From positions 1 to 44,502 of the forward strand of contig JBFZDM010000058.1 in the NCBI GenBank assembly GCA_041307365.1: a stretch of 44,502 nucleotides of DNA, read 5' to 3'. Source of the DNA: Chromatiaceae bacterium. GTDB taxonomy: Bacteria; Pseudomonadota; Gammaproteobacteria; Chromatiales; Chromatiaceae. This document shows, in pieces, positions 1-44,502 of the stretch. A program made the position numbers and the translations under genes. Each line of letters starts with the position of its first letter. Position 1 is the stretch's first letter. A model generated the notes under the pieces. It was not told where the DNA came from, did no database searches, and was given only the letters and a program-made list of their open reading frames with translations.

Positions 1-12
1 CCCCCGCTCGCT
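1..12. repeat. Terminal 12-nt direct repeat CCCCCGCTCGCT (second copy at 44489-44500). It may be a cohesive end / cos junction or an assembly overlap.
   Basis: The same 12-mer occurs at both window ends, and a gpA-type (cos-family) large terminase is encoded nearby. The last 2 nt of the window (AG) do not fit a simple overlap. Confidence 0.45.
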
Positions 13-23
13 CGCGCTATTTT

Positions 24-129
24 CGTATGAAAATCATACGGATTTGGGTTTTCTAAGTGGTGTTTTTGACCAACTCGTATGATAACCATACACCTGTGCG
101 TATGTATGACTTTCATACGGATCATACGG
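24..129. promoter_or_regulatory. Left-end cluster of CGTATG(A)/(T)CATACG palindromic sites that look like protein-binding sites
   Basis: Sites are CGTATGAaaaTCATACG at 24-40, CGTATGataacCATACa at 76-92, CGTATG-n9-CATACG at 99-119 and an extra TCATACGG at 122-129. The 17-mer at 58-74 is the exact inverted copy of 44396-44412. Confidence 0.6.
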
Positions 130-165
130 CACTGACACTTTTTGTCACTTCGAGGGTCTAAGGGC

Positions 166-801
166 ATGAGCACCAAACGTAAACCCACCTTGCCAGATGT
201 CCAGTTTGTTGTCATGAAGCTCGCCGACCTTCGCCCGGCCGCCTACAATCCCCGCACCATCTCAGACGACGCCATGGCTGGCCTGGAAGCCTCGATCACT
301 CGCTTCGGCCTGGTCCAGTGCCCGGTGTTCAACCGGCGGTCTGGTACGCTGGTCGGCGGCCACCAGCGGGTCAAGGTGCTCGAGAAGGCCGGCATGACCG
401 AGACCATGACCGCCGTGGTCGATGTGGACGAGACCAGCGAGAAGGCGCTCAACCTGACGCTCAACAACCCGGCCATTGCGGGGGAGTTCAACGAGCGGCT
501 AGCCGACTTGCTCGGGATCATCCAGGCCGAGGACGAGAAGCTGTTCGGGGAGTTGCGCCTTGACGTGCTGCTGCCGGCGGAGCCCGACAAGCCAGAGGAC
601 GAATGGCAGGGTATGCCGGAGTTTGAGCAGGAGGATCAGGGCCCGTGGAAGACGGTCCATGTCCACTTCCGGGGCAAGGAAGACCTCGACGCCTTCGCTG
701 CGTTGGTCGGCCAGGCCATGACGGAGAAGACCAAGTTTGTCTGGTATCCGAAGGCCGAGATCGGTGTCTATCGCGACAAGGGCTACGTCGATGAACCCTA
801 G
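166..801 (+). CDS. ParB-like nuclease (ParB N-terminal) domain protein
   Basis: Contains the motif LRPAAYNPRTI...LVGGHQRVKVL typical of the ParBc domain. ATG at 166; the ORF is also open from TTG at 142. The stop overlaps the next gene's start. Confidence 0.75.
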   Translation: MSTKRKPTLPDVQFVVMKLADLRPAAYNPRTISDDAMAGLEASITRFGLVQCPVFNRRSGTLVGGHQRVKVLEKAGMTETMTAVVDVDETSEKALNLTLNNPAIAGEFNERLADLLGIIQAEDEKLFGELRLDVLLPAEPDKPEDEWQGMPEFEQEDQGPWKTVHVHFRGKEDLDAFAALVGQAMTEKTKFVWYPKAEIGVYRDKGYVDEP

Positions 802-1633
802 GCATCCGGTGTACATCATCAGCAAGGGCCGATGGGAATCAAGATATACATCAAATGAGCTTGAGCGGATCGGGGTGCCGTACCATATCGTGATCGAGCC
901 GCAAGAGTACGATCAATATGCAGCGGTCATCGCCCCAGAGAAGATACTTGTGCTCCCGTTCTCGAACCTAGGCCAGGGCTCAATACCGGTGCGCAATTGG
1001 GTCTGGGAGCATTCAATCGGGCTCGGTGCAGAACGACATTGGATAATGGATGACAACATATTGAAATTCTATCGATCCAATAGAAATTCAAAGATACCGG
1101 TGCAATCTGGAACGATTTTCCATTGCGCAGAGCAGTTCATTGATCGGTATGAGAACATAGCGATGGCTGGCTTCCAATATGAATCGCTATCGCCAAGAAG
1201 AGATATCAAAAAACCATTGGCTTTTAACACGCGCATCTATTCTTGCATCCTGTTGTTGAACTCGCTGAAGCACCGCTGGCGGGGCCGGTACAACGAGGAT
1301 ACAGACTTGAGCTTGCGACTGCTCAAGGATGGTTGGTGTACTGTGCTGTTCTATGCTTTCCTCGCGAACAAAGTGGCAACAATGCGAGTCAAGGGCGGCA
1401 ACACCGACCAGCTCTATAAGCAGGACGCAACCTTCGATGGCCGGCTGGAAATGGCCCGGTCGCTTGCCCGGCAGCACCCGGACGTGACGAAGATCAAGTG
1501 GAAGTGGGGCCGGTGGCAGCATGTCGTGGACTATTCTCGGTTCAAGCGAAACAAGCTCAAGCGGCGTCCTGGGGTCGAGATCCCTGATGGCGTGGACAAC
1601 TTTGGGATGACGCTGAAGGTGTTCGAGCAATGA
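791..1633 (+). CDS. GT-A-fold glycosyltransferase-like protein (possibly TAGT/GREB1-like)
   Basis: Has an N-terminal VYIISKGR strand, a DxD-like IMDDNI and a second acidic motif NEDTDLSLRL. GC is clearly lower (mid-40s % by eye over 820-1260) than in the flanking genes. ATGA overlap with terS. Confidence 0.5.
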   Translation: MNPRHPVYIISKGRWESRYTSNELERIGVPYHIVIEPQEYDQYAAVIAPEKILVLPFSNLGQGSIPVRNWVWEHSIGLGAERHWIMDDNILKFYRSNRNSKIPVQSGTIFHCAEQFIDRYENIAMAGFQYESLSPRRDIKKPLAFNTRIYSCILLLNSLKHRWRGRYNEDTDLSLRLLKDGWCTVLFYAFLANKVATMRVKGGNTDQLYKQDATFDGRLEMARSLARQHPDVTKIKWKWGRWQHVVDYSRFKRNKLKRRPGVEIPDGVDNFGMTLKVFEQ

Positions 1634-2298
1634 CCAAACCATCGGATTCCGAGCGCAAACAGCAACAGCTACTCTCCACGCTCCTTGTCTTGGCCAAGGC
1701 CGGCGACCCGCGTGCCGACTGGCTGATCAACGCCCTCACCGAAGCCGGCTACCGCCAGGCCGGGCTCTATACCCAGCACGAGATCATGCGCGGCTTGGGT
1801 GTGACCCAACGCACGATCACGAACTGGTGCCGCGACGGCCTGCCCAGGGCGCGCGAGAGTAAGGGCCGGATCCCGGCGCTGTTCGACGTGTTCGCCGTCT
1901 GCCAGTGGCGGATCGAGCACATCGAAAGCAAGGTCCGCGCCAAGCTGGAAGACGACCCGCTGTTGGGCGGCGAGACCAGCCCGGCGCTCGAGAAGTACAG
2001 GCGGGAGAAGTGGCGGCAGGCCAAGCGCGAGAACGACGTGGCCGAGGGCCTGCTGATCTCGGTGGCCTACGTCTTGGAGTACATGCGCGTGATCGCAGGC
2101 GCGTTCCGGCAGCGGGCTGACATGGCCCAGAGAACATTCGGCCGGGAGGCCGGCCAGTTTATCGCGGAGACCATCAATGAAGCCGCAGCGGCGCTTGAGC
2201 GGCTCGCCGCGCGGCAAGAGAACGGCGAGCAGCCACCGAAGAAACGCGGACGCGGCAGACCGCGTAAGAGCCCTATCGACCGTCCGCCTGGGGGTTGA
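1630..2298 (+). CDS. terS: Terminase small subunit (HTH N-terminus, Nu1-like arrangement)
   Basis: Lies immediately upstream of and overlapping terL. Has HTH-like HEIMRGLGVTQRTITNWCRDG, a coiled-coil middle region and a basic tail. Confidence 0.6.
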   Translation: MTKPSDSERKQQQLLSTLLVLAKAGDPRADWLINALTEAGYRQAGLYTQHEIMRGLGVTQRTITNWCRDGLPRARESKGRIPALFDVFAVCQWRIEHIESKVRAKLEDDPLLGGETSPALEKYRREKWRQAKRENDVAEGLLISVAYVLEYMRVIAGAFRQRADMAQRTFGREAGQFIAETINEAAAALERLAARQENGEQPPKKRGRGRPRKSPIDRPPGG

Positions 2299-4231
2299 GC
2301 GGTTCAGGGTCCGCGTCCACCGGTCCTATCTGCAGTTCGCGGAGGAAGAGTTCGTGTTGCCGACCGGGCCGAGGGCTGGGTTCCGCTTCGCGGCTTCCTT
2401 CATGCCGTGGACAGGCTTGGTGTTGCGGGCGTTCGATGACGAGCGGTATCGACGGTTTTGGGGCAGCGGGCCAGCACAGAGCAGCAAGACGGTTCTATTT
2501 TTCTTGATCCCGATCCTCTACCATCTGTTCGAGGTGGCCGAGACTGTGATCGTCGGGACACCGCGCATGGAAGACGCCTATGCCATTTTCACTGACCGTC
2601 TGCTACCTGCCATCCGGGCCAACCCGGCATGGGCCGCTCTGCTACCGTCAGAGGGCGCTGGCAGCCGTGGCGGACGGTTCCATGCGATTCGGTTTCGCAA
2701 CGGGGCCATCCTCCGGTTCATGTCCGGGGCAGGCCGGGACGAAGAGCGCAGCTCGCACACGGCCCGCGTGGTTGTCTTGACGGAGGTGGACAAGTTTGAC
2801 GAGGCCGGCACGACCTCGCGCGAGGCAGACCCGATCAGCCAGATCGAGGCGCGTACCCGGGCGTTCGGCGGGCGGGCTCGGGTGTTCGCGGAATGTACCA
2901 TGTCCACGAAGGAAGGCCGCGTCTGGCGGGAGATCTCGGACCACGGTACCGACTCGCAACTGTGGCTTGCATGCCCGCACTGCGGGCGGTGGGCGGCGCC
3001 CGAGCGCGAGCAGTTCACCGGGTGGCAGGGTTGCGAGGATGTGAACGCCGCGCGCGACCACGGCGCCTATACCTGCGGCGAGTGTGGGGCGGCGTGGTCG
3101 GAGGCAGATCGACGCGCTGCGCTCGAGCGTCCGGTCATGGTCGCGGCAGGGCAGACGGTGACGGCGGGGCTGGTGACCGGAGAGCCGCGGCGCACCAACA
3201 CATTCGGGGTGCGGTGGAACTCGCTGCACTCGGCCATGACGGATCAGGCCGACATCGCCGAGGACGAATGGCGCGCCCAACAGCTCGACGATGAGGCCAG
3301 CAAGAAGCGCCTCGCCCAGTTCGTCTGGGGCTTGCCCTACGAGGCGGAGAAGGAACAGACGCTTGACATTACCGAGCAGACCATGTACCGGCGCATCACT
3401 GATCGCGCCCGCGGGATTGTCCCGGCCAATACCGAGAAGGTGACCGTCTTCGTGGACTTGGGCTTGTACCGCTGTTGGTGGTCTGCGTGGGCCTGGTCTG
3501 AAGGCATGCGGGGCCATTGCCTGGACTATGGATGCCTGTTGGTCGAGCATGGTGCCCGGTCGGAGGACGCCGCGATCCTAGCGGCCCTGCGCGAGTTCAG
3601 GGACGATATCCTGACCCCGGGCTGGGCCAACTCTGAGGGCGTGCGGCGCGGGGCGGATATGGTGCTCGTCGACCGCAACTGGAAGCCCGAGGTAGTGTCG
3701 GTGTTCTGCCGGGAAAGCGGCCCGGGCTACATGGGCGCGCATGGCCGCGGGGCGGTGCGCGGCCTCAAGTCGTGGACGGAGCCGAACCCGACCAAGGCCA
3801 AGCTGATCGGTGAGGGCTGGTATGTGACGCCGAGCTCGCGGGGCGGGTGCGTGGTCCTCATGGATGGCGATCGGTGGAAGGGCCGCGTACATGCTGGCTT
3901 CGTGGCGGCCGAGGGTGCGCCTGGATCGCTGACGCTCTACAAGGGCCAGCCGCGGGAACACAGCACGTTTTGCCGGCACATCCTCGCCGAGCACCAGATA
4001 GAGGAGTGGGAACCAGGGAAGGGGCCGATCGTGCGCTGGCACCAGAGCAGCCGCTCGAATCACTACCTCGATACCGCGTACGGGGCAATGGTCGCGGCGT
4101 CGATCTGCGGCATGCGGCTTGTGGTGCCGGCCAAGGTTCCGCGGCGACCGAAGCTCGGGGGCGGGTATCAACACCAGAATGGACCATACCAGAGATCCGC
4201 CGCGGGCGGCGGGTGGAGGATAGGACGGTGA
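2177..4231 (+). CDS. terL: Terminase large subunit, lambda gpA family
   Basis: Walker A-like GSGPAQSSKT; the gpA-like N-terminal segment FAEEEFVLPTGPRAG; a Zn ribbon CPHCGRW...CGECG. Start is uncertain: ATG 2177 has GGAG 7 nt upstream but overlaps terS by 122 nt, and GTG 2354 is the alternative. Confidence 0.9.
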   Translation: MKPQRRLSGSPRGKRTASSHRRNADAADRVRALSTVRLGVERFRVRVHRSYLQFAEEEFVLPTGPRAGFRFAASFMPWTGLVLRAFDDERYRRFWGSGPAQSSKTVLFFLIPILYHLFEVAETVIVGTPRMEDAYAIFTDRLLPAIRANPAWAALLPSEGAGSRGGRFHAIRFRNGAILRFMSGAGRDEERSSHTARVVVLTEVDKFDEAGTTSREADPISQIEARTRAFGGRARVFAECTMSTKEGRVWREISDHGTDSQLWLACPHCGRWAAPEREQFTGWQGCEDVNAARDHGAYTCGECGAAWSEADRRAALERPVMVAAGQTVTAGLVTGEPRRTNTFGVRWNSLHSAMTDQADIAEDEWRAQQLDDEASKKRLAQFVWGLPYEAEKEQTLDITEQTMYRRITDRARGIVPANTEKVTVFVDLGLYRCWWSAWAWSEGMRGHCLDYGCLLVEHGARSEDAAILAALREFRDDILTPGWANSEGVRRGADMVLVDRNWKPEVVSVFCRESGPGYMGAHGRGAVRGLKSWTEPNPTKAKLIGEGWYVTPSSRGGCVVLMDGDRWKGRVHAGFVAAEGAPGSLTLYKGQPREHSTFCRHILAEHQIEEWEPGKGPIVRWHQSSRSNHYLDTAYGAMVAASICGMRLVVPAKVPRRPKLGGGYQHQNGPYQRSAAGGGWRIGR

Positions 4232-4245
4232 GCGAAGATAAAACA

Positions 4246-4437
4246 ATGGACATCGGAGAGATCGATCGGCTCGCAGAAGAGATGGCAATGGATCATGGTG
4301 TCGTGTCGATCCGCAACGTCATGTCTCGGTGCGGCTGTTCGGAGCTTGATGCCCAACGTATTCTGACTCAGATGTTTGCTCTGCTGCGGCTGACGGTTGT
4401 CATGTTGCGGCAACGATCCGTAGAGGTGATGGCATGA
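4246..4437 (+). CDS. Hypothetical small protein
   Basis: 63-aa ORF between terL and the next gene, with an ATGA overlap downstream. GTG 4228 is an alternative start. Confidence 0.45.
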   Translation: MDIGEIDRLAEEMAMDHGVVSIRNVMSRCGCSELDAQRILTQMFALLRLTVVMLRQRSVEVMA

Positions 4438-4739
4438 GCGGCAAACGAAGACGGCACCAGCGAGCTCCAGACCCGATCCCCGATCTCGAGACACAGGAGC
4501 CCGAGGTCAGGTGGCAGGAGATCGGCGTCACCGTCCGGGTCGGGGACATGTGGCCCAAGGACGTGCCGTTGCCAGACGTCTACCTACGCCAGCGGCCGAT
4601 GCCCTGCCCTGAGTGCATGGCCGTCTTCGCCCCGGGGGATGGGCGCGCGGCGGTGCTGGTGTCGAGCCGCACCTCGATTGTCTATATGCGGTGCAAAGTA
4701 TGCGGGCACAGGTGGAAGCTGCCGGTGAGGGAGATTTGA
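4434..4739 (+). CDS. Zinc-ribbon protein, Ogr/Delta-like arrangement
   Basis: CPEC-x27-CKVCGHRW with the pattern VYMRCKVCGHRW, which resembles Ogr/Delta late activators. Confidence 0.45.
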   Translation: MSGKRRRHQRAPDPIPDLETQEPEVRWQEIGVTVRVGDMWPKDVPLPDVYLRQRPMPCPECMAVFAPGDGRAAVLVSSRTSIVYMRCKVCGHRWKLPVREI

Positions 4740-4827
4740 CCCGGATCCAGATCTGTAATCCGCCGACACCTATCACTTGCCTGATGCCGTACGCTGTGGG
4801 TTGAGCCCCTAGCAGACGGCCCCATCC

Positions 4828-5103
4828 TTGACTACCTCGGTAACCGAAGCCAATTTCCGCACGGCGTGCGGCGAAGTCTACGACGCGATCGCGTCGGAGT
4901 CCTGGGCCAGCGCCCACAAGTGGGCAGCCAAGGCCGAGGCCATGAACGCCGGCCTCGATCTCCAGCTCGCCGACGAACGCGCATCCAAGGCCCGGCGCGA
5001 GACGTTGCGCGGTCTGCGCGACGCCATCGACGCGGCAGAGAAGGCGGTGAGCAAGTACAGCAACACCGCCGGCCGATTCGTCACTACGCGGGTGCAATTT
5101 TGA
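4828..5103 (+). CDS. Hypothetical protein (occupies the head-completion, gpW-like position)
   Basis: 91-aa ORF with a TTG start and weak RBS. Sits between terL and the portal gene as lambda W does. Its stop overlaps the portal start. Confidence 0.4.
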   Translation: MTTSVTEANFRTACGEVYDAIASESWASAHKWAAKAEAMNAGLDLQLADERASKARRETLRGLRDAIDAAEKAVSKYSNTAGRFVTTRVQF

Positions 5104-6851
5104 GCTGGCCCACCAAGCTCGCCGACGGCGTGGTCGGCCTGTTTTCGCCGCGCCGTGCGGCGCTCCGCAAGGTCTGGCGTGATCCAGAGACTCAACGTAT
5201 TTACTCGGCCATGCTCCGCGCCCGTAGCTACCGCGCGGCGTCCAGCAGCCCGCAGAAGTGGCTCCAGAACGAGAGCGCCCCGGACTCTGACGCCAGCGAC
5301 TTGGCCGCCATGCGCAAGCGTTCCGCCGAGCTTGAGCGGGATGACTCGATCGCGTGCGGCCTGGTCAAGACGTTCACCGACAACGTCATCGGCAGCCGCG
5401 GCCTTGAGCCGCAGGTGCGGACGCAGGACCGCACCTTGAACGACGCGATTGAATCGGTCTGGCATGAGCGCGCCGGCCAGCTCCACCCGGTCGATCAGCT
5501 GACCTATGGCCAGGCCCAGCGCCTCAAGTTCCGACGCGCCCTGGTTGACGGCGACGTGCTAGTGGTAGCCAGCTCAGACCCGGGCGAGCCGATCTCCTTC
5601 GAGATCGTGGAAGCCCCGCGGATCCAGACGCCGGCCGGCAAGATCAACGACCCGAGTATTGTATCCGGTGTCGAGCGTGACGCCCGGAAGCGGCCTATCG
5701 CCTACCACGTCGGCGACTACGGCGGCGAGTATGGCGGCGGCGGCAAGCCAGTCCGCGTGGAAGCCGAGCGCGCCCACATGCTACGGCATGTCCTGCGTTC
5801 TGGCCAGAGTCGCGGCGTTAGCTACTTCCACGCCGTGCTACAGGACATCCGCGACCTTGACCTTCTGTTGGTCGCGTCGCTCAAGCGTACTCAGATTGCG
5901 GCATGTCTGGCCCTGTTCATCGAGTCGGAGCTGCCGATCACTGATCTCACCGAGGCCACCGAACAGACCTACGGGTACAAGCTCGACCAGGCCATCGAGC
6001 CCGGCATGATTTTCAAGCTCTTCCCCGGCGAGAAGGTTTCCTCGCTGCTCCCCAATTTCCCGGTGCCGGAGCTTGTCCCGTTCACCGTGGCCATTGCACG
6101 GCGGATCGGGGTGGCGCTTGGCGTGTCGTGGCAAACGTTGCTCAGGGACTTTAGCCAGTCCAACTATAGCTCCGCGCGCACAACCTTGCTCGACGATCGG
6201 CGCACCTTCCAGGCCCTACAGGAATGGTTTATCCCGCTGCTCGATTGGGAATGGGCGCAGGTCATGGCAGATGCCCGGCTGCGGGGTGATCCGCGGCTGG
6301 CCAATGTCGATGACGCTGCGATCCGGTCTGTGCGCTGGGTAGCGCAGGGGTGGCAGTGGGTCGATCCGCAGAAGGAAGCGCTAGCGATCCAGCTCGAGCT
6401 CCAGCTGGGCACCACGACCTTGCGCGATGTGTGTCAATCCATGGGCAAGGATTGGGAGCAGATCACAAGCCAGCGAGTGGAAGAGGCCGCGTTGCTGAAG
6501 CAGATGCGCCTTGAAGCCGGGCTCAAGCCGTCAGATATGCTGGGCTTTGCCGGTCAACGATTGACCGCGCGGGCGACCGTGGGCGAAGAGGTGCCGGAGC
6601 TGGAAATGGAAGAGGGCTGGGAACAAGTGCAGGACCGGCGCCAGACACGCGAGCAGCGATTCCGGCAGCAGCGCGACAAGCTCGGCCTGCCGCCCAGGTA
6701 CACGCTGGACGAATGGCGGTACGCGGTGACGACCCGTGGCCAGATCGAGGCTGAGGAAGAACTTAGCCCTGAGGAACCAGCAGACCCGGACGAGGCGGCC
6801 GATTTCGCCACGTCGGAGACAGACGACGAGGAACCCGCCAATGAAGACTGA
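5100..6851 (+). CDS. Portal protein, lambda gpB family
   Basis: GVSWQTLLRDFSQSNYSSARTTLLDDRR matches the lambda portal segment GVSYEQLSRNYAQMSYSTARAS. Also contains RKRSAELERDDSIACG. TTG start at 5100; acidic C-terminus. Confidence 0.9.
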   Translation: MSWPTKLADGVVGLFSPRRAALRKVWRDPETQRIYSAMLRARSYRAASSSPQKWLQNESAPDSDASDLAAMRKRSAELERDDSIACGLVKTFTDNVIGSRGLEPQVRTQDRTLNDAIESVWHERAGQLHPVDQLTYGQAQRLKFRRALVDGDVLVVASSDPGEPISFEIVEAPRIQTPAGKINDPSIVSGVERDARKRPIAYHVGDYGGEYGGGGKPVRVEAERAHMLRHVLRSGQSRGVSYFHAVLQDIRDLDLLLVASLKRTQIAACLALFIESELPITDLTEATEQTYGYKLDQAIEPGMIFKLFPGEKVSSLLPNFPVPELVPFTVAIARRIGVALGVSWQTLLRDFSQSNYSSARTTLLDDRRTFQALQEWFIPLLDWEWAQVMADARLRGDPRLANVDDAAIRSVRWVAQGWQWVDPQKEALAIQLELQLGTTTLRDVCQSMGKDWEQITSQRVEEAALLKQMRLEAGLKPSDMLGFAGQRLTARATVGEEVPELEMEEGWEQVQDRRQTREQRFRQQRDKLGLPPRYTLDEWRYAVTTRGQIEAEEELSPEEPADPDEAADFATSETDDEEPANED

Positions 6852-27571: not shown

Positions 27572-27739
27572 TCAGTAGGGTACACCCTGGAATGAATACA
27601 ACACGCCGTCTACCTCGATGTCCTGGGTGTGCTCCAGGATCACTGGATAGGATATCTCAGCCCAGTGGGCGGTGCCTTCCCGCCTCGCCCGCGCGGCCTT
27701 CCTGCGCGCGTTGCGCGCGTGTCGCTTGACCCAACTCAT
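27572..27739 (-). CDS. Hypothetical basic micro-protein
   Basis: 55 aa from an internal ATG, with an ATGA overlap to the upstream gene. Confidence 0.45.
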   Translation of the reverse strand: MSWVKRHARNARRKAARARREGTAHWAEISYPVILEHTQDIEVDGVLYSFQGVPY

Positions 27740-28137
27740 AGCGGTTCTCCCTTCGCGCACGAGTCGTGCGCCCATGTGACCCCGTGGTGCGAGTATCTGT
27801 ACCGGCACAGCGCGTGTATCTCGATGGTCCCGCCGCAAATCGCGCACGGGTGGCCGCCCCGCACCCCGCACCGCGACAGCGGCATCTGATCCCACCGCTT
27901 CCGCGCCCCGAATCCGCGGCGCCCACCGCGCGCGTACCAAGCGTCTACGCGGGCGAGCAGCCGCTGTACGTACTCCGTGGGCCGCGCCAGCCTGTCGGTC
28001 TGCGGCATCCGCTCGTACTCCCAGACCTCGACGATCCAGCCTCCGGTGAGCCGGGTCAGGCCGAGCAGCGCCAGGCCCTGTTCCGAGAGCTGGTCCAGGT
28101 GGTCGCGGAGCCAGGCGAGCTGGTCAGGATCGGGCAT
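27736..28137 (-). CDS. Hypothetical protein with a Cys/His-rich C-terminus
   Basis: 133 aa with a GGGAGG RBS. C-terminus is CGVRGGHPCAICGG...HHGVTWAHDSC. Confidence 0.55.
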   Translation of the reverse strand: MPDPDQLAWLRDHLDQLSEQGLALLGLTRLTGGWIVEVWEYERMPQTDRLARPTEYVQRLLARVDAWYARGGRRGFGARKRWDQMPLSRCGVRGGHPCAICGGTIEIHALCRYRYSHHGVTWAHDSCAKGEPL

Positions 28138-28279
28138 CTTTCTGCCTCCCGTACTGAACCGGGCGGAACTCCGTAAGGCAGTTGGCACACCGGATCATCT
28201 TTACCGCCTCGAACGGCAGACTAACCCGCATCCGGCACTTGGGGCAGACATCCCAGGTATATCCCCACGAATCGATCAC
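28124..28279 (-). CDS. Zinc-ribbon micro-protein
   Basis: 51 aa, translated by hand, with CPKC-x15-CANC. The GTG start comes directly after the dcm stop (TAAGTG) and is preceded by the 25-nt RBS repeat. Confidence 0.4.
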   Translation of the reverse strand: MIDSWGYTWDVCPKCRMRVSLPFEAVKMIRCANCLTEFRPVQYGRQKDARS

Positions 28280-29008
28280 TTACGTTCCTCCACTACCACG
28301 CACCCGCGGCCGTCGCAACAGGCGCCATGCGAGCGCAGCCACAGCCGGAACCTGGCCGTTCCCAGTGGCTCTAAGGCGGTCCATCCTAGAGGCCACCCCA
28401 TCAGCCATTCGACCCACATCGGGTTCAGATCGCCACCAACCACTTCCGACAGGGGTCTGGAATTTTTGGCCATCGTCTTGGCACTCGCCTTGCCGCTCCT
28501 CCAATCTCGTGCGATCGGCGTTGGCCACAAGCCAGAGCCGGTTCCTCCTGTGGGGAGCGGAGACGTGATGCGCTCCGACAATTCCCCATCGAGAAGCATA
28601 CCCCATTTCGGCAAGATCACCGAGGACCACGGCAAGACCTCGTCGAACAAGGAGTGGGCTGTTCTCCACGAAGACGAAGCGAGGTCGTACCTCGCTGATG
28701 ATTCGCGCCATCTCTGACCAGAGCCCGCTCCGTGGCCCGGAGATCCCGGCTCCGCGCCCTGCACAGCTGATGTCCTGGCAGGGGAATCCGCCAGAGATGA
28801 CATCGACGTGTCCGCGCCAGGGCCGCCCGTCGAATGTCCTAACATCATCCCAGATCGGGAACCGTGGCAGGTGGCCGTCTCGCTGCCTGGCGAGCAGCAC
28901 GGATCGGCAGTAGGGATCAATTTCGACAGCGCAGATGGTGCGCCAGCCAAGGAGGATTCCGCCCAGGATGCCGCCTCCTGCCCCTGCAAATAGTGCCAGC
29001 TCATTCAT
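28280..29008 (-). CDS. dcm: DNA (cytosine-5)-methyltransferase, unusually compact (242 aa)
   Basis: Motif I FAGAGGG, motif IV GGFPCQDIS, motif VI ENSP, motif VIII RRNRLWLVA and motif X GNGQVP. Only about 40 aa are available for a target-recognition domain. Confidence 0.9.
   Translation of the reverse strand: MNELALFAGAGGGILGGILLGWRTICAVEIDPYCRSVLLARQRDGHLPRFPIWDDVRTFDGRPWRGHVDVISGGFPCQDISCAGRGAGISGPRSGLWSEMARIISEVRPRFVFVENSPLLVRRGLAVVLGDLAEMGYASRWGIVGAHHVSAPHRRNRLWLVANADRTRLEERQGECQDDGQKFQTPVGSGWWRSEPDVGRMADGVASRMDRLRATGNGQVPAVAALAWRLLRRPRVRGSGGT
28285..28309 (-). repeat. 25-nt direct repeat (copy B) flanking dcm
   Basis: TTCCTCCACTACCACGCACCCGCGG matches 29011-29035 at 24 of 25 positions. 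On the minus strand it ends in the RBS GGAGGAA. Confidence 0.8.
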
Positions 29009-29130
29009 CTTTCCTCCACCACCACGCACCCGCGGTCATCCCGCGTGGTCCATCGGTATATGACGACGCCCTTATGCCCGCGCATGGCCTCCCAGGCGGC
29101 GGTGAAGCTAGGGTATAGGGTGGCCATCAT
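29005..29130 (-). CDS. Possible 41-aa micro-ORF
   Basis: ATGA overlap with the dcm start, but it overlaps the upstream gene by about 20 nt. Weak support. Confidence 0.3.
   Translation of the reverse strand: MMATLYPSFTAAWEAMRGHKGVVIYRWTTRDDRGCVVVEER
29011..29035 (-). repeat. 25-nt direct repeat (copy A) flanking dcm
   Basis: TTCCTCCACCACCACGCACCCGCGG lies immediately upstream of the dcm ATG on the minus strand. Confidence 0.8.
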
Positions 29131-31287: not shown

Positions 31288-31430
31288 GGCTTCCCCTCCG
31301 GGGCCGGCTCCGGCCATCTGATACACACCAGGATCTCTCGGCACCTCGCCTCGAACCTCTGCCGATCCCGCGCCAAGTCTCGCGCTCGCGCCTGAGCCCT
31401 CATCTTGCGTTTCCGTCGGCCGGGCCTCAT
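31284..31430 (-). CDS. Arg-rich micro-protein
   Basis: 48 aa, translated by hand, with a GAGGAGG RBS and ATGA overlaps at both ends. Confidence 0.4.
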   Translation of the reverse strand: MRPGRRKRKMRAQARARDLARDRQRFEARCREILVCIRWPEPAPEGKP

Positions 31431-31795
31431 GGCGCCTCCTCGACGGTCACCTCACCATCATCCACCGTCAGGATCTCCTCGTCTCCGCTCTCCCAGATCA
31501 TCTTGACCCGCAGTCGGCCTGTGCTGCGTCTGAGCAGCCCCTTGAGCTCATCGAAATGGGTGCCGCTGAATTCGCCCCAGTATTGCAGATGGCTCACAAG
31601 CACAGATTCAACCTCCCATTTGCCGGATAGCTCGAATCCTTCCGCCAAGCCATAAGCCGATAGCCATACTGCCTCCTCGTCATCCTCAACATTTGAACAT
31701 GCATATTCAATTTCTGGGATGGATCCAAGAGCATCCACAGGGATCCGCAGCCCGTCTAGCTCCTTGACCTTCCAGTGTTCGATGTTGAGTGTCAT
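31427..31795 (-). CDS. Strongly acidic hypothetical protein
   Basis: 122 aa from the internal ATG, with a GGAGG RBS. Hand count gives 27 Asp/Glu against 10 Lys/Arg. Confidence 0.55.
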   Translation of the reverse strand: MTLNIEHWKVKELDGLRIPVDALGSIPEIEYACSNVEDDEEAVWLSAYGLAEGFELSGKWEVESVLVSHLQYWGEFSGTHFDELKGLLRRSTGRLRVKMIWESGDEEILTVDDGEVTVEEAP

Positions 31796-31932
31796 GGTGC
31801 CTCCATCGGCCCAAAGGCCCGCGCCAGGCTCTCGGCGTCCAGCGCCCGCAGCGTCTCCACTGGGACATTGCCCAGGTGCCCGAGCCGGATCATCGCCCGG
31901 CAGATACGGGATTTGCGCTCTCGGTCGGTCAT
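31792..31932 (-). CDS. Hypothetical micro-protein
   Basis: 46 aa with a GGAGG RBS and ATGA coupling. Confidence 0.4.
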   Translation of the reverse strand: MTDRERKSRICRAMIRLGHLGNVPVETLRALDAESLARAFGPMEAP

Positions 31933-32105
31933 GGCTTGGCCTCCTGGAACGGGTCGGGGAATACGACATAGATCGTTTTCCGGTTGACGCGCCGCGTCTT
32001 GAGTTTGCCGAGCCGGATCCATTCCAGCACCGTCTCGACCGTCTTCCCGAGCCGGACCGCAGCAGCGGCCGGGCTCAGGTACTCGGGCTTAGTAGATTCG
32101 GACAT
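31929..32105 (-). CDS. MerR/excisionase-type HTH DNA-binding protein
   Basis: 58 aa, translated by hand. LSPAAAAVRLGKTVETVLEWIRLGKLKTRRVNRKTIYV fits the HTH_17 pattern. Confidence 0.55.
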   Translation of the reverse strand: MSESTKPEYLSPAAAAVRLGKTVETVLEWIRLGKLKTRRVNRKTIYVVFPDPFQEAKP

Positions 32106-35119: not shown

Positions 35120-35710
35120 TCATTCAATGAAATCGAAGTGCTGTTGGTTTTGGTCGGAAGGTCGCTGTGGCGTCGGGAATACACGTCTCGGCGGCGGGTT
35201 CCCGTCGTGGCCCAGGATGACTTCCTCTGGCACCATGGGGCGTCGTGCCAGTGTTCGATCTGACATCCAGCGGAAGGCCCTGAACCGTGTTCCATCGCCG
35301 TTGTCTTGCTCGAAGCCGGCAACAGTACCGCTCTGCTTCCAGAGATCCCATACCCAGGTGCGGAACTTCGACAGATCGCAGATGACCCAATGCGCGAGCG
35401 CCCCGCCATCCTCTGATCTCAGGCCATAGAAGAAGAGATCGCCAAACCCCTCCATGACCTTCTTGAACTCGGTCTTCGTCCCGCTGTCTCTGCGGCTCCG
35501 CAGGGTAAATTCGCCCCAGTATTTCTTGTAACTTGGCCTTCTGATCCTGACCGCAATCCGAAGATCCTTGGCGATGATCAGTTTCAGATCCGTGGCCTTG
35601 AGCGCGTCATCCTCGAACGGTGCTTCGATCAGAAGATACTCGGCGAGGAGGCGCTTGACCTCCGGCATGTACCTGTCTGCCTCGATCTTGTCTCGTTCCC
35701 AGGCCATCAT
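35120..35710 (-). CDS. Hypothetical protein
   Basis: 196 aa with an ATGA overlap to the upstream methyltransferase stop. I recognise no family. Confidence 0.6.
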   Translation of the reverse strand: MMAWERDKIEADRYMPEVKRLLAEYLLIEAPFEDDALKATDLKLIIAKDLRIAVRIRRPSYKKYWGEFTLRSRRDSGTKTEFKKVMEGFGDLFFYGLRSEDGGALAHWVICDLSKFRTWVWDLWKQSGTVAGFEQDNGDGTRFRAFRWMSDRTLARRPMVPEEVILGHDGNPPPRRVFPTPQRPSDQNQQHFDFIE

Positions 35711-36870
35711 GATTCTTTCCCCCACACGTCGAAGTCCTCAATCGGGCGGCGGTTGAACATGTCGATCCGGCGCCCTGCGGTCACTCGGCGCAAGGTCTCG
35801 TAGAACGCTTCCGGCTTGGCGCTGTGCTCGGCACGCGGCGCCTGGAAACAGGTCGGAAACGCCTTCGTGTCGATGAATTGCGGCGTCCCGCGGCGGCCGT
35901 AAAGGCAAAACTCGCAGTTGTACTGTGGCAGGCCGAACGGCTGCGGCCCGCCTGGCTTGTGCCAGACGAAGGTCAAGACATACTTGACAGCCCAGGCCGC
36001 CAGGATCGAAAAAGCGTCTGGCAAGAAGCGCTGGGTAGTCCACAAGAAGACGTGGGCGTCAGGTGCCGCGGGGATCTTGATGGCCTCGATCTCGGCGAGG
36101 TCCATGGTCGGATAGTCGAGCTCGGCTTGCTGGTTCGGGCGGCAGTCACGCTCGATCTTCGCCATGGGCCATGGCGGATCAACCACAACCACGTCATAGA
36201 CGCCCACGGCTGCCTTGGCGGTCTTCGCCTCGATCGATTCGAGGCGCTGCACTACCTCGGCGCGCTTGGTCTCGCGGACGGCGGCAGCCAACGGCATTTC
36301 GCCCGATTGAACCCTGGCCGCGAGTTCGGGGGCGTTGCGCTTGAGGCTGATGGCCTGGCGGATCTTGCGCTCGGGCAGGTTTGAACTTTTGGCGGCAGTC
36401 GTAACTTTTGGCTCTGCCCGGGTTCGTTGTTTAGGTGCAAGCTCTGATCGCTTGCTGGACACGTCGTCCAGCAAGCGATCGGTGATCTGTTCTGGCGTCG
36501 CTTTACCGCCGGCTGCTCTTCCAGCCTTCGCCCGTTCCTGCTTTGCCCTCTCAATCTCGAGGTCCACCAGCGTCGCCTTGACCATGGCCCGCTGGTCATC
36601 GGTCAGGTTCCGGCGTTGCAGCTGGTTCTTGCTGACCCAGATCTTGGCGACCAGGCGATCCTGCAGGCTCAAGCGGGTCTCGCGGTACGGCTTTCCGAGC
36701 CGGTCGCAGATCCCGACTCGCTGGTGACCGTCAAGCAGGATGCCAGTCTCATCCCAGACGATGACAGGGTCACGACAGCCCTCGTCGGCGATGCTGGCCT
36801 CAAGCAAGGCCAGCTCGGCAGGTGTGGATAATGTGAGTAAGCTCTGGAATTCAGGGTCGATGGTGAACAT
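35707..36870 (-). CDS. ParB N-terminal domain fused to an MT-A70-family (N6-adenine type) DNA methyltransferase
   Basis: N-terminus ILLDGHQRVGIC (ParBc). C-terminus VVVDPPWPM (DPPW motif), LWTTQRF and SAKPEAFYE. Confidence 0.85.
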   Translation of the reverse strand: MFTIDPEFQSLLTLSTPAELALLEASIADEGCRDPVIVWDETGILLDGHQRVGICDRLGKPYRETRLSLQDRLVAKIWVSKNQLQRRNLTDDQRAMVKATLVDLEIERAKQERAKAGRAAGGKATPEQITDRLLDDVSSKRSELAPKQRTRAEPKVTTAAKSSNLPERKIRQAISLKRNAPELAARVQSGEMPLAAAVRETKRAEVVQRLESIEAKTAKAAVGVYDVVVVDPPWPMAKIERDCRPNQQAELDYPTMDLAEIEAIKIPAAPDAHVFLWTTQRFLPDAFSILAAWAVKYVLTFVWHKPGGPQPFGLPQYNCEFCLYGRRGTPQFIDTKAFPTCFQAPRAEHSAKPEAFYETLRRVTAGRRIDMFNRRPIEDFDVWGKES

Positions 36871-44264: not shown

Positions 44265-44300
44265 GGTCTGCTCATGTAATGGGCGCGATACATCTATGGG

Positions 44301-44455
44301 CGTATGATAACCATACGCGCAAAGATAGTGGGCAGACAAGTGTATGTTTATCATACTCTGCCCAAAGGCTTGGCGTATGAGTGTCATACGCTGTAGTTGG
44401 TCAAAAACACCATGCGTATGACCAAAAAGTTGGCAAGTCGTATGAAAATCATACG
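44301..44455. promoter_or_regulatory. Right-end cluster of CGTATG(A)/(T)CATACG palindromic sites
   Basis: Sites are CGTATGataacCATACG at 44301-44317, tGTATGtttatCATAC at 44341-44356, CGTATGAgtgTCATACG at 44374-44390, a half-site at 44415-44421 and CGTATGAaaaTCATACG at 44439-44455. The 21-mer at 44438-44458 is identical to 23-43. Confidence 0.6.
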
Positions 44456-44488
44456 GATGGGTCCTCCCGGGGGCCTCCTACGGGTCCC

Positions 44489-44500
44489 CCCCCGCTCGCT
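44489..44500. repeat. Second copy of the terminal 12-nt repeat CCCCCGCTCGCT
   Basis: Identical to positions 1-12 and preceded by three further C residues. Confidence 0.45.
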
Positions 44501-44502
44501 AG

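Follow-up and report, generated by a model that had tools for sequence, protein, structure and literature searches.

What does a phage glycosyltransferase act on when its genome contains no recognizable enzyme to prepare an acceptor, and which protein does it work with? The question is raised by the 44,502-nt genome of an uncultured soil phage (contig JBFZDM010000058.1, 64.5% GC), which is called the window here and was analyzed over its whole length. Near its start, two overlapping genes encode a ParB-like protein (166-801) and a glycosyltransferase of the TAGT family (791-1633). The original prediction treated them as two neighbouring genes, a description that turned out to be incomplete: they form one conserved and, to judge from their overlap, translationally coupled module, with an adaptor domain (CTD) that had gone unnoticed. 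A census of two sequence collections, together with a search for CTD-carrying proteins, establishes that the CTD is the dedicated partner of this clade of TAGT enzymes and that the ParB-N head is optional. As to function, we consider it fairly probable that this is a late, ParB-assisted, adaptor-tethered module for the glycosylation of phage DNA, where we infer the DNA target, the tethering or activation by ParB-CTD, and the timing.

Both open reading frames (ORFs) were confirmed at the coordinates originally given, and the motifs VYIISKGR, IMDDNI and NEDTDLSLRLL that had been quoted for the 280-aa ORF are all present in it. The features of the module are these (HMM, hidden Markov model):

166-801, plus strand: gene for ParB-N plus adaptor domain (CTD), 211 aa, ATG start, with an alternative TTG start at 142
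220-468, plus strand: ParB-N domain, residues 19-101 (E 1.3e-21 with an HMM built on the N-termini of 37 CTD proteins)
589-771, plus strand: adaptor domain (CTD), residues 142-202 (CTD HMM, E 1.2e-33)
791-801, plus strand: 11-nt overlap of the ParB-CTD stop and the TAGT ATG
791-1633, plus strand: gene for the TAGT-family GT-A glycosyltransferase, 280 aa, Pfam PF20691
809-832, plus strand: VYIISKGR, residues 7-14, first strand of the fold, with the conserved S11-K12-x-R14
1043-1060, plus strand: IMDDNI, residues 85-90, DxD-type motif (H83 W84 x D87 D88 N89)
1277-1324, plus strand: WRGRYNEDTDLSLRLL, with the conserved W163-T171 block and NEDTDLSLRLL at residues 168-178

The 280-aa protein had been likened to the TAGT (GREB1-like) family, and the profile search bore this likeness out. 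Pfam TAGT (PF20691) was matched over its full length (profile positions 2-205 of 205) with 145.9 bits against a cut-off of 27.5 and an E value of 1.9e-42, and phrog_842 was matched with E 1.1e-37. More than 8000 candidate homologues were scored, the best of them 73% identical. When 154 distinct clade sequences were compared, the window protein was found to retain all 52 positions with at least 95% conservation; S11, K12 and R14, D87, D88 and N89, and N168, E169 and D170 are each conserved at this level. The W163-T171 block corresponds to the ED motif of the phage GT-A DNA glycosyltransferases, whose published motif is R...DDD...EDY/F (bioRxiv 10.1101/2023.12.21.572611). Judged by sequence, 791-1633 clearly belongs to the TAGT family with a GT-A fold. 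The protein is basic (isoelectric point, pI, 9.6). The nearest TAGTs of cultured phages were merely 40-44% identical to it, a megablast search of positions 1-6000 against INPHARED gave no match, and no solved structure was related to the protein by sequence.

The 211-aa partner had been described as a ParB-nuclease-domain protein. The ParB assignment held, and the matches place it with the ParB-N CTPase-fold domain, without a helix-turn-helix (HTH). The protein matched the ParB-like family phrog_620 (E 6.5e-28) and, in a phmmer search against PDB, Spo0J of B. subtilis (6sdk, E 1.1e-5), and scored 22.1 bits with Pfam ParB_N (PF02195), just under the cut-off of 26.3. Where Spo0J has GERR in box II, this protein has GGHQR, so that the last Arg is kept while Glu is replaced by His and the first Arg by Gln; binding of a nucleoside triphosphate (NTP) by this domain is possible, and hydrolysis doubtful. 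It does not look like a canonical partition ParB: ParB-N and the CTD were the only parts found, with no HTH and no C-terminal dimerization domain, and no ParA-type family appeared in any Pfam scan of the genome. A second ParB-N in the same phage is fused to an MT-A70 methylase (35707-36870, minus strand) and shares 38% identity over 47 aa with the ParB-N of 166-801, a GHQR box II being common to both.

The CTD itself, about 70 aa long, is matched by no Pfam model. Its motif is EWQGMPEF..HVHF..DAFAALVGQ..KTKFVWYP, and the surrounding C-terminal tail (residues 136-211) is acidic, with a pI of 4.6. A weak likeness of the CTD to a beta-alpha-beta piece of MT-A70 (E 0.038) was not confirmed, and none of 10 larger CTD carriers was a methylase.

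In the first contigs examined, the genes upstream of TAGT combined a variable N-terminus with a conserved C-terminus, EWxGMPEF..HVHF..FAxLVGQ..T..WYP. The census covered two collections. The first, made up mainly of IMG/VR viral contigs plus a few other metagenome and NCBI contigs, held 96 TAGT ORFs. A ParB-N+CTD gene lay directly upstream of 36 of these and a short CTD-only gene upstream of 30, while in 20 the CTD was fused to the TAGT N-terminus and in one ORF ParB-N, CTD and TAGT were fused; an upstream CTD was absent in 6, and 3 lay at a contig edge. The second collection comprised 80 loci from species-representative genomes of many phyla, at 40-71% identity, and included cultured Pantoea, Erwinia, Chryseobacterium, Rhodovulum and Marivivens. 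Here we counted 36 upstream ParB-N+CTD genes, 21 upstream CTD-only genes, 14 CTD-TAGT fusions and 1 triple fusion, with no upstream CTD in 3 loci and a contig edge in 3.

Of the 93 assessable cases in the first collection, 87 thus had the CTD either in the gene directly before TAGT or fused to TAGT, as had 72 of 78 in the second, a total of 159 of 171 assessable TAGT genes (123 directly upstream, 36 fused). Every one of the 37 collection-1 CTD proteins with a long N-terminus contained ParB-N. The exact 11-nt overlap seen in the window recurred in 49 of the 66 split pairs of the first collection and in 22 of 57 in the second, which suggests translational coupling of ParB-CTD and TAGT.

Beyond these loci, a profile of the stand-alone CTD found 3371 clusters (50% identity) among 1.84 billion representative proteins. 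The types seen among 10 larger CTD carriers that were scanned include CTD-TAGT fusions, TAGT with a C-terminal CTD, and ParB_N-CTD. Fusion ORFs join ParB-N, CTD and TAGT at locus L050 (6105-7652), and CTD, TAGT and a UDG-like domain at L017 and L044. Neither the CTD nor the ParB-CTD/TAGT module was found described in the literature searched; the CTD as the constant partner of this TAGT clade is new here.

Some carriers (P0175, P0122 and others) hold the CTD in several copies. A 979-aa protein has two TAGT domains and five CTD stretches, and proteins of 157-200 aa have two copies in tandem. These tandem CTD copies parallel the tandem TAGT genes at L031, L049, L055, L070, L076 and L087.

A structure model was made for the natural triple fusion at L050 (6105-7652; AlphaFold2, 137-row alignment), not for the window protein; the TAGT part of the fusion is 63% identical to the window TAGT. 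The model had a mean pLDDT of 88.4 and a pTM of 0.75. With Foldseek, its GT-A part matched ColGalT1 (9evj, E 1e-6), LH3, heparosan synthase and ppGalNAc-T, and its ParB-N CTPase-fold part matched pNOB8 ParB, Noc, and the ParB proteins of Caulobacter and Myxococcus (5k5d, 7nfu, 7bm8, 7bnr). Against BFVD, the model matched TAGT and ParB proteins from many phages. The CTD segment was mostly above pLDDT 80 and largely extended apart from one helix. Going by pLDDT only, we infer that the CTD would dock on the TAGT enzyme.

The mechanism that we propose would run as follows. The GT-A enzyme would transfer a sugar from a nucleotide-sugar, while the acidic CTD would dock onto the basic TAGT and in this way tether it to the ParB-N domain. 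On the model of the ParB-like proteins that activate phage thymine dioxygenases, ParB-N would then give TAGT access to duplex phage DNA. Sugar addition would follow replication and come shortly before packaging, shielding the DNA from host nucleases. DNA as the target is argued for by the family membership of the enzyme, its 52 retained positions out of 52, the pairing and fusions with the CTD, and the complementary pI values of the two partners (4.6 versus 9.6). It is argued for also by DNA-linked contexts (terS/TerL, UDG, N6_N4 methylases, DNA polymerase A, and loci L011 and L158) and by published precedent. That the adaptor is fused or coupled to ParB-N, and sometimes to UDG-like domains, argues that the enzyme still works on DNA.

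The module is flanked in the window by the following:

1-141, continuing at 44265-44502: genome-end region, non-coding, directly 5' of the module, with CGTATGA / TCATACG palindromes
1630-2298, plus strand: terS (phrog_57, E 1.1e-12), overlapping TAGT by 4 nt
2177-4231, plus strand: TerL ORF, gpA type (Pfam GpA_ATPase E 1.4e-28, GpA_nuclease E 2.7e-18)

The TerL coordinates are those of the longest ORF, and the real start is possibly further downstream. Palindrome half-sites in 1-141 lie at positions 24, 34, 76, 113 and 122, and a repeat of 20 nt, TCGTATGAAAATCATACGGA, is present both at 23 and at 44438. The palindrome array of the end region may represent cos or terS sites, operators, or sites for the ParB-N protein.

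This layout recurs. In most loci that contain the TerL cluster, terS is at +1 and TerL at +2 from TAGT, and a 48-kb relative has the gene order ParB_N, TAGT, TAGT, terS, gpA TerL, portal_2. In some loci the module lies inside replication or modification clusters, away from structural genes. At L089 the order is CTD-TAGT-UDG-N6_N4 methylase-DNA polymerase A, with two further methylases upstream. At L017 (9647-11287) and L044 (9286-11022) a UDG-like domain with the motifs GQAPG and HPSG (Pfam UDG below cut-off) is C-terminal to CTD-TAGT. N6_N4 methylase was the commonest family among 150 neighbour proteins scanned with Pfam, and Tet_JBP was not matched by two or more representatives in this set. 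A UDG-like domain is also encoded near TAGT at L037 (8273-8725), and TAGT is directly followed by a canonical UDG or UDG-DNA polymerase gene in L037 and L031, with one small ORF intervening in L089.

It had been proposed that the glycosyltransferase might work with a glycan cassette at 11.6-14 kb of the window. We found no support for this link: the constant partner is the CTD, and the recurring neighbours are packaging, replication and DNA-modification genes, although the loci were not searched for the cassette. In the prophage of Pantoea stewartii ATCC 8199 (L119, 7719-9256), a GT9-like glycosyltransferase and a SAM (S-adenosylmethionine) methyltransferase are encoded directly upstream of ParB-CTD, TAGT, terS and terL, in what may be a larger glycan-building cluster. 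An NAD-dependent sugar epimerase/dehydratase lies within a few genes of TAGT in six loci, and a radical-SAM/SPASM protein in five (examples at L069, 11446-12402, and L018, 1525-2616).

If the enzyme acts on DNA, the acceptor has to be accounted for. Pfam scans of the window covered all called non-structural genes, ten structural genes, and each stop-to-stop frame of 110 codons or more in unannotated regions, at E values up to 0.5. These scans gave no match to Tet_JBP/5mYOX, another 2-oxoglutarate oxygenase, Thymidylat_synt or Thy1 (ThyX), and a TET seed search of the window was likewise negative, in keeping with the original prediction, in which no TET/JBP dioxygenase or hydroxymethylase had been found. 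The T-even pathway to glucosyl-hydroxymethylcytosine (glucosyl-hmC) was not recognized either, the window Pfam scans giving no T4-type glycosyltransferase (GT) family and no thymidylate-synthase-fold match. A PHROGs scan of the window added only RecT, RusA and SSB. The first 12 nt of the genome are repeated at 44489-44500 and the longest contig with the TAGT protein measures 44,578 nt, which together fit a complete, closed genome; the window is therefore one in which the orphan state of TAGT can be asserted.

The lack of a recognizable acceptor pathway in the window weighs against a DNA target, as does the finding that a TET lies within 10 kb in just 2 of 169 related loci (L011 and L158; TET seed). 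Three points from outside our data count on the same side. Animal GREB1, a protein O-GlcNAc transferase of the same superfamily, glycosylates a protein. A 2023 preprint, by a group working on these phage DNA glycosyltransferases, rates orphan GT contigs as "less likely" to act on DNA (bioRxiv 2023.12.21.572611). A hydroxyl already in place is required by every characterized phage DNA glycosyltransferase, and for the known hypermodified pyrimidines it comes from ThyS homologues or 5mYOX (bioRxiv 2025.06.16.659550).

One alternative is that the module glycosylates a protein, be it a packaging, virion or host protein or ParB-CTD itself, with the CTD serving as substrate recruiter or acceptor. This would suit the Pfam scans, which found no acceptor-making enzyme in the genome, the position of the module beside terminase and head genes, the invariant Thr, Tyr and Trp positions of the CTD, and the place of GREB1 in the superfamily. 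However, the recurrent partners handle DNA (ParB-N, UDG-like domains, N6/N4 methylases, and Tet_JBP/ADDT/kinase clusters), the TAGT protein is strongly basic at pI 9.6, and the module is also found in replication clusters away from structural genes. We regard a protein target as unlikely.

The two loci with a TET bear on a second alternative. In L011 (225-3982), from a relative of Nonlabens phage P12024L, the genes are Tet_JBP, ADDT (an amino acid:DNA transferase) and a P-loop kinase, together with a CTD standing alone and a TAGT that belongs to the window's clade. L158 (533-3409), a contig of a Winogradskyella metagenome-assembled genome, carries a canonical TAGT of 256 aa on the same strand as Tet_JBP, and a divergently oriented CTD-TAGT fusion of 375 aa, an arrangement that suggests two successive sugar additions. 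Because of these two clusters we conclude that the window's TAGT clade can join DNA hypermodification pathways and that it usually stands alone. P12024L itself has the order Tet_JBP (gp26), TAGT (gp27), methyltransferase; in L011, ADDT, the P-loop kinase, the CTD and the clade's TAGT take the place of the canonical TAGT behind Tet_JBP.

The second alternative, then, is that DNA is glycosylated on a hydroxylated or activated base made by an unrecognized enzyme, which might be an early protein, the short C5-cytosine methyltransferase (C5-MT) through a non-canonical activity, or a host enzyme. Early ORFs without a family match are available at 27736-28188, 31427-31969 and 35120-35725, a C5-MT and ParB-MT-A70 are encoded in the genome, and the presence of the clade in TET-based clusters implies that hydroxymethyl-type acceptors may be usable. 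The unannotated ORFs, however, are all shorter than the two TETs of the related clusters (288 and 289 aa) and have no oxygenase or thymidylate-synthase family match, and 35120-35725, read by eye, contains no H-x-D triad. The orphan state, moreover, is shared by 167 of 169 loci, which come from widely differing phages. A common hidden partner would show as a conserved neighbour, and across related loci only the CTD, ParB-N, terS and TerL recur, which counts against such a precursor. We consider it distinctly unlikely.

The two methyltransferase genes that had been noted in the window are real. The C5-MT (28280-29029, minus strand; 249 aa) is intact and aligns end to end, with 59% identity, with the 244-aa enzyme of Salmonella phage S9-5, and ParB-MT-A70 (35707-36870) was recovered by the Pfam scan. 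A second frame over the C5-MT DNA (28279-29004, minus strand) is open for 242 codons, resembles methylase motifs and matches annotated phage methylase loci (E 8e-22). A frameshift was considered and rejected on the strength of the end-to-end alignment of the main frame. The matches of the second frame also fall in an alternative frame of the S9-5 gene, and this frame probably just reflects conserved DNA of high GC content. The idea that the phage carries a three-layer DNA-modification repertoire stays a conjecture because no acceptor base is known.

The low GC content of the TAGT gene had been taken as a mark of recent acquisition. The dip is there: 300-nt windows over 800-1400 had a GC content of 0.457-0.50, compared with a genome mean of 0.645. 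The TAGT gene as a whole has a GC content of 0.52 and a third-position GC content (GC3) of 0.65, and the ParB-CTD gene values of 0.63 and 0.83. Part of the dip, however, is general to the gene in GC-rich phages. TAGT was GC-poorer than its flanks in all 31 loci with a flank GC of at least 0.60, with a mean difference of -0.059, and because all 31 share the deficit it is in part a property of the gene. AT-rich phages showed no difference between TAGT and flanks. The difference in the window, -0.128, is near the extreme of the 31 loci, and the low GC3 fits a TAGT ORF that was acquired, or replaced, later than its partner gene.

The same figures, a GC of 0.52 versus 0.645 for the genome and a GC3 of 0.65 versus about 0.82, would be expected if TAGT were a recently acquired passenger with no role in the phage, its low GC marking an unintegrated cassette. 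Yet all 52 invariant positions are intact, as is the 11-nt coupling to a partner gene of native GC3, the deficit is shared by all 31 GC-rich carriers, and the same sequence was found in independent samples. A 5197-nt contig from one soil run matches 187-5383 with 0 differences, and a wetland metagenome from a separate study contains identical pieces covering 448-829, which spans the gene junction, and 993-1478. This difference-free recurrence in soil and wetland data excludes an assembly artefact, and we hold a passenger role to be very improbable.

Glycosylation of phage DNA by this module, the reading that we prefer, would imply either that a glycosylatable base is made by some unknown route or that the chemistry of the DNA glycosylation is new, and either outcome would bear on phage counter-defence and on DNA-labelling tools. 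In its boldest form, DNA glycosylation would be self-sufficient and need no hydroxymethyl or hydroxy precursor: a ParB-fold NTP switch would give access to duplex DNA, and the sugar would be placed straight onto a DNA component that is canonical or no more than methylated. Candidate acceptors would be exocyclic amines, ring positions, or DNA ends created at packaging. We think this doubtful. If it were true, it would be an undescribed kind of DNA modification in thousands of phage lineages across bacterial phyla, with a sister form in roughly one in six complete E. coli genomes.

This sister form was found in E. coli W (NC_017664.1; L171, 4083-5796), where the gene of a ParB/Srx-N protein overlaps that of a "hypothetical" protein of 310 aa, which matches Pfam TAGT with E 3.6e-34; in this lambdoid prophage, a small ORF, terS and terL follow the pair. 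E. coli ynaK shares about 71% DNA identity with the stretch of the Pantoea gene that encodes ParB-N. The E. coli pair was covered to at least 80% in 889 of 5426 complete E. coli genomes, and ynaK/ydaY of the K-12 Rac prophage appear to be a remnant of it. TAGTs of the E. coli type also stand beside annotated ParB-like genes in Escherichia and Salmonella phages, Lactobacillus phage phi jlb1 and Haloarcula virus HHTV-2. No literature on function was found for ynaK, ydaY or GREB1-related proteins. Intact modules are available in cultivable systems, namely the prophages of E. coli W and Pantoea stewartii ATCC 8199, phi jlb1 and HHTV-2.

The pair in E. coli lambdoid (Rac-type) prophages, whose second member also goes by the name "GREB1-related protein", resembles the window in its layout, a ParB-N protein overlapping TAGT, followed by terS and terL, and in having no known acceptor pathway described for it. 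It differs in belonging to another TAGT clade and in a ParB tail outside the range of the CTD HMM: a phmmer comparison of the window TAGT with the E. coli sister TAGT gave no match at E values up to 10, and the sister ParB tail gave no CTD HMM match.

TAGTs without a recognizable pathway are common. Solitary TAGTs of undefined function were reported in 288 of 753 phage genomes (PMC13216743), and about 65% of some 25,000 GT contigs have no 5mYOX or ThyS nearby, ParB and terminase genes being frequent neighbours of GT contigs (bioRxiv 2023.12.21.572611). The GT-A enzymes that are linked to 5mYOX act on DNA (bioRxiv 2023.12.21.572611). These TET/5mYOX-associated enzymes, exemplified by gp27 of P12024L and the metavirome enzymes of that preprint, share with the window protein the Pfam family, the GT-A fold, the R, DD(D/N) and ED motifs, and a phage origin. 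The identity of gp27 is 26.6% to the window TAGT and 27% to the clade member at L011. Unlike P12024L, the window has no TET or ThyS in its genome, and the gene directly upstream of its TAGT encodes ParB-CTD, not a dioxygenase. The window's clade has an obligate adaptor, whereas none was found with the canonical TAGTs of P12024L and L158.

The beta-glucosyl-HMC-alpha-glucosyltransferase of phages T2 and T6 is a TAGT that acts on DNA (PMC13216743). It falls into the same Pfam family and phrog_842 as the window protein, and its own role is the post-replicative transfer of sugar to phage DNA. It differs in adding a second glucose onto glucosyl-hmC, for which it needs a dCMP hydroxymethylase and an alpha-glucosyltransferase, neither of which was found in the window genome, and it is too distant from the window TAGT for tblastn at E 1e-3.

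A closer parallel to the proposed partnership is 5mYOX176/ParB176, in which an HTH-less ParB-like protein activates a phage thymine dioxygenase on double-stranded DNA (O'Toole et al., PNAS 2026, PMC13229309). Here too an HTH-less protein of the ParB-N fold stands beside a post-replicative DNA-modifying enzyme, as predicted for the window, and the neighbourhoods are likewise rich in GTs, ParBs and terminases. In the window the partner is a glycosyltransferase, no Tet_JBP is found in the genome, and the putative link runs through a dedicated CTD, which is found without ParB-N as well.

A survey of ParB-CTPase fusions makes no mention of glycosyltransferases (PMC12704722). The DNA methyltransferases fused to ParB-N (phrog_498; PMC12704722) are nonetheless comparable to the window module in that a ParB-N head is coupled to a predicted DNA-modifying catalytic unit, and the window phage itself encodes one such fusion, the ParB-MT-A70 protein of 35707-36870. 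In contrast to these methyltransferases, the catalytic unit of the module is a separate polypeptide, which would be recruited through the adaptor, and the group transferred would be a glycosyl rather than a methyl group.

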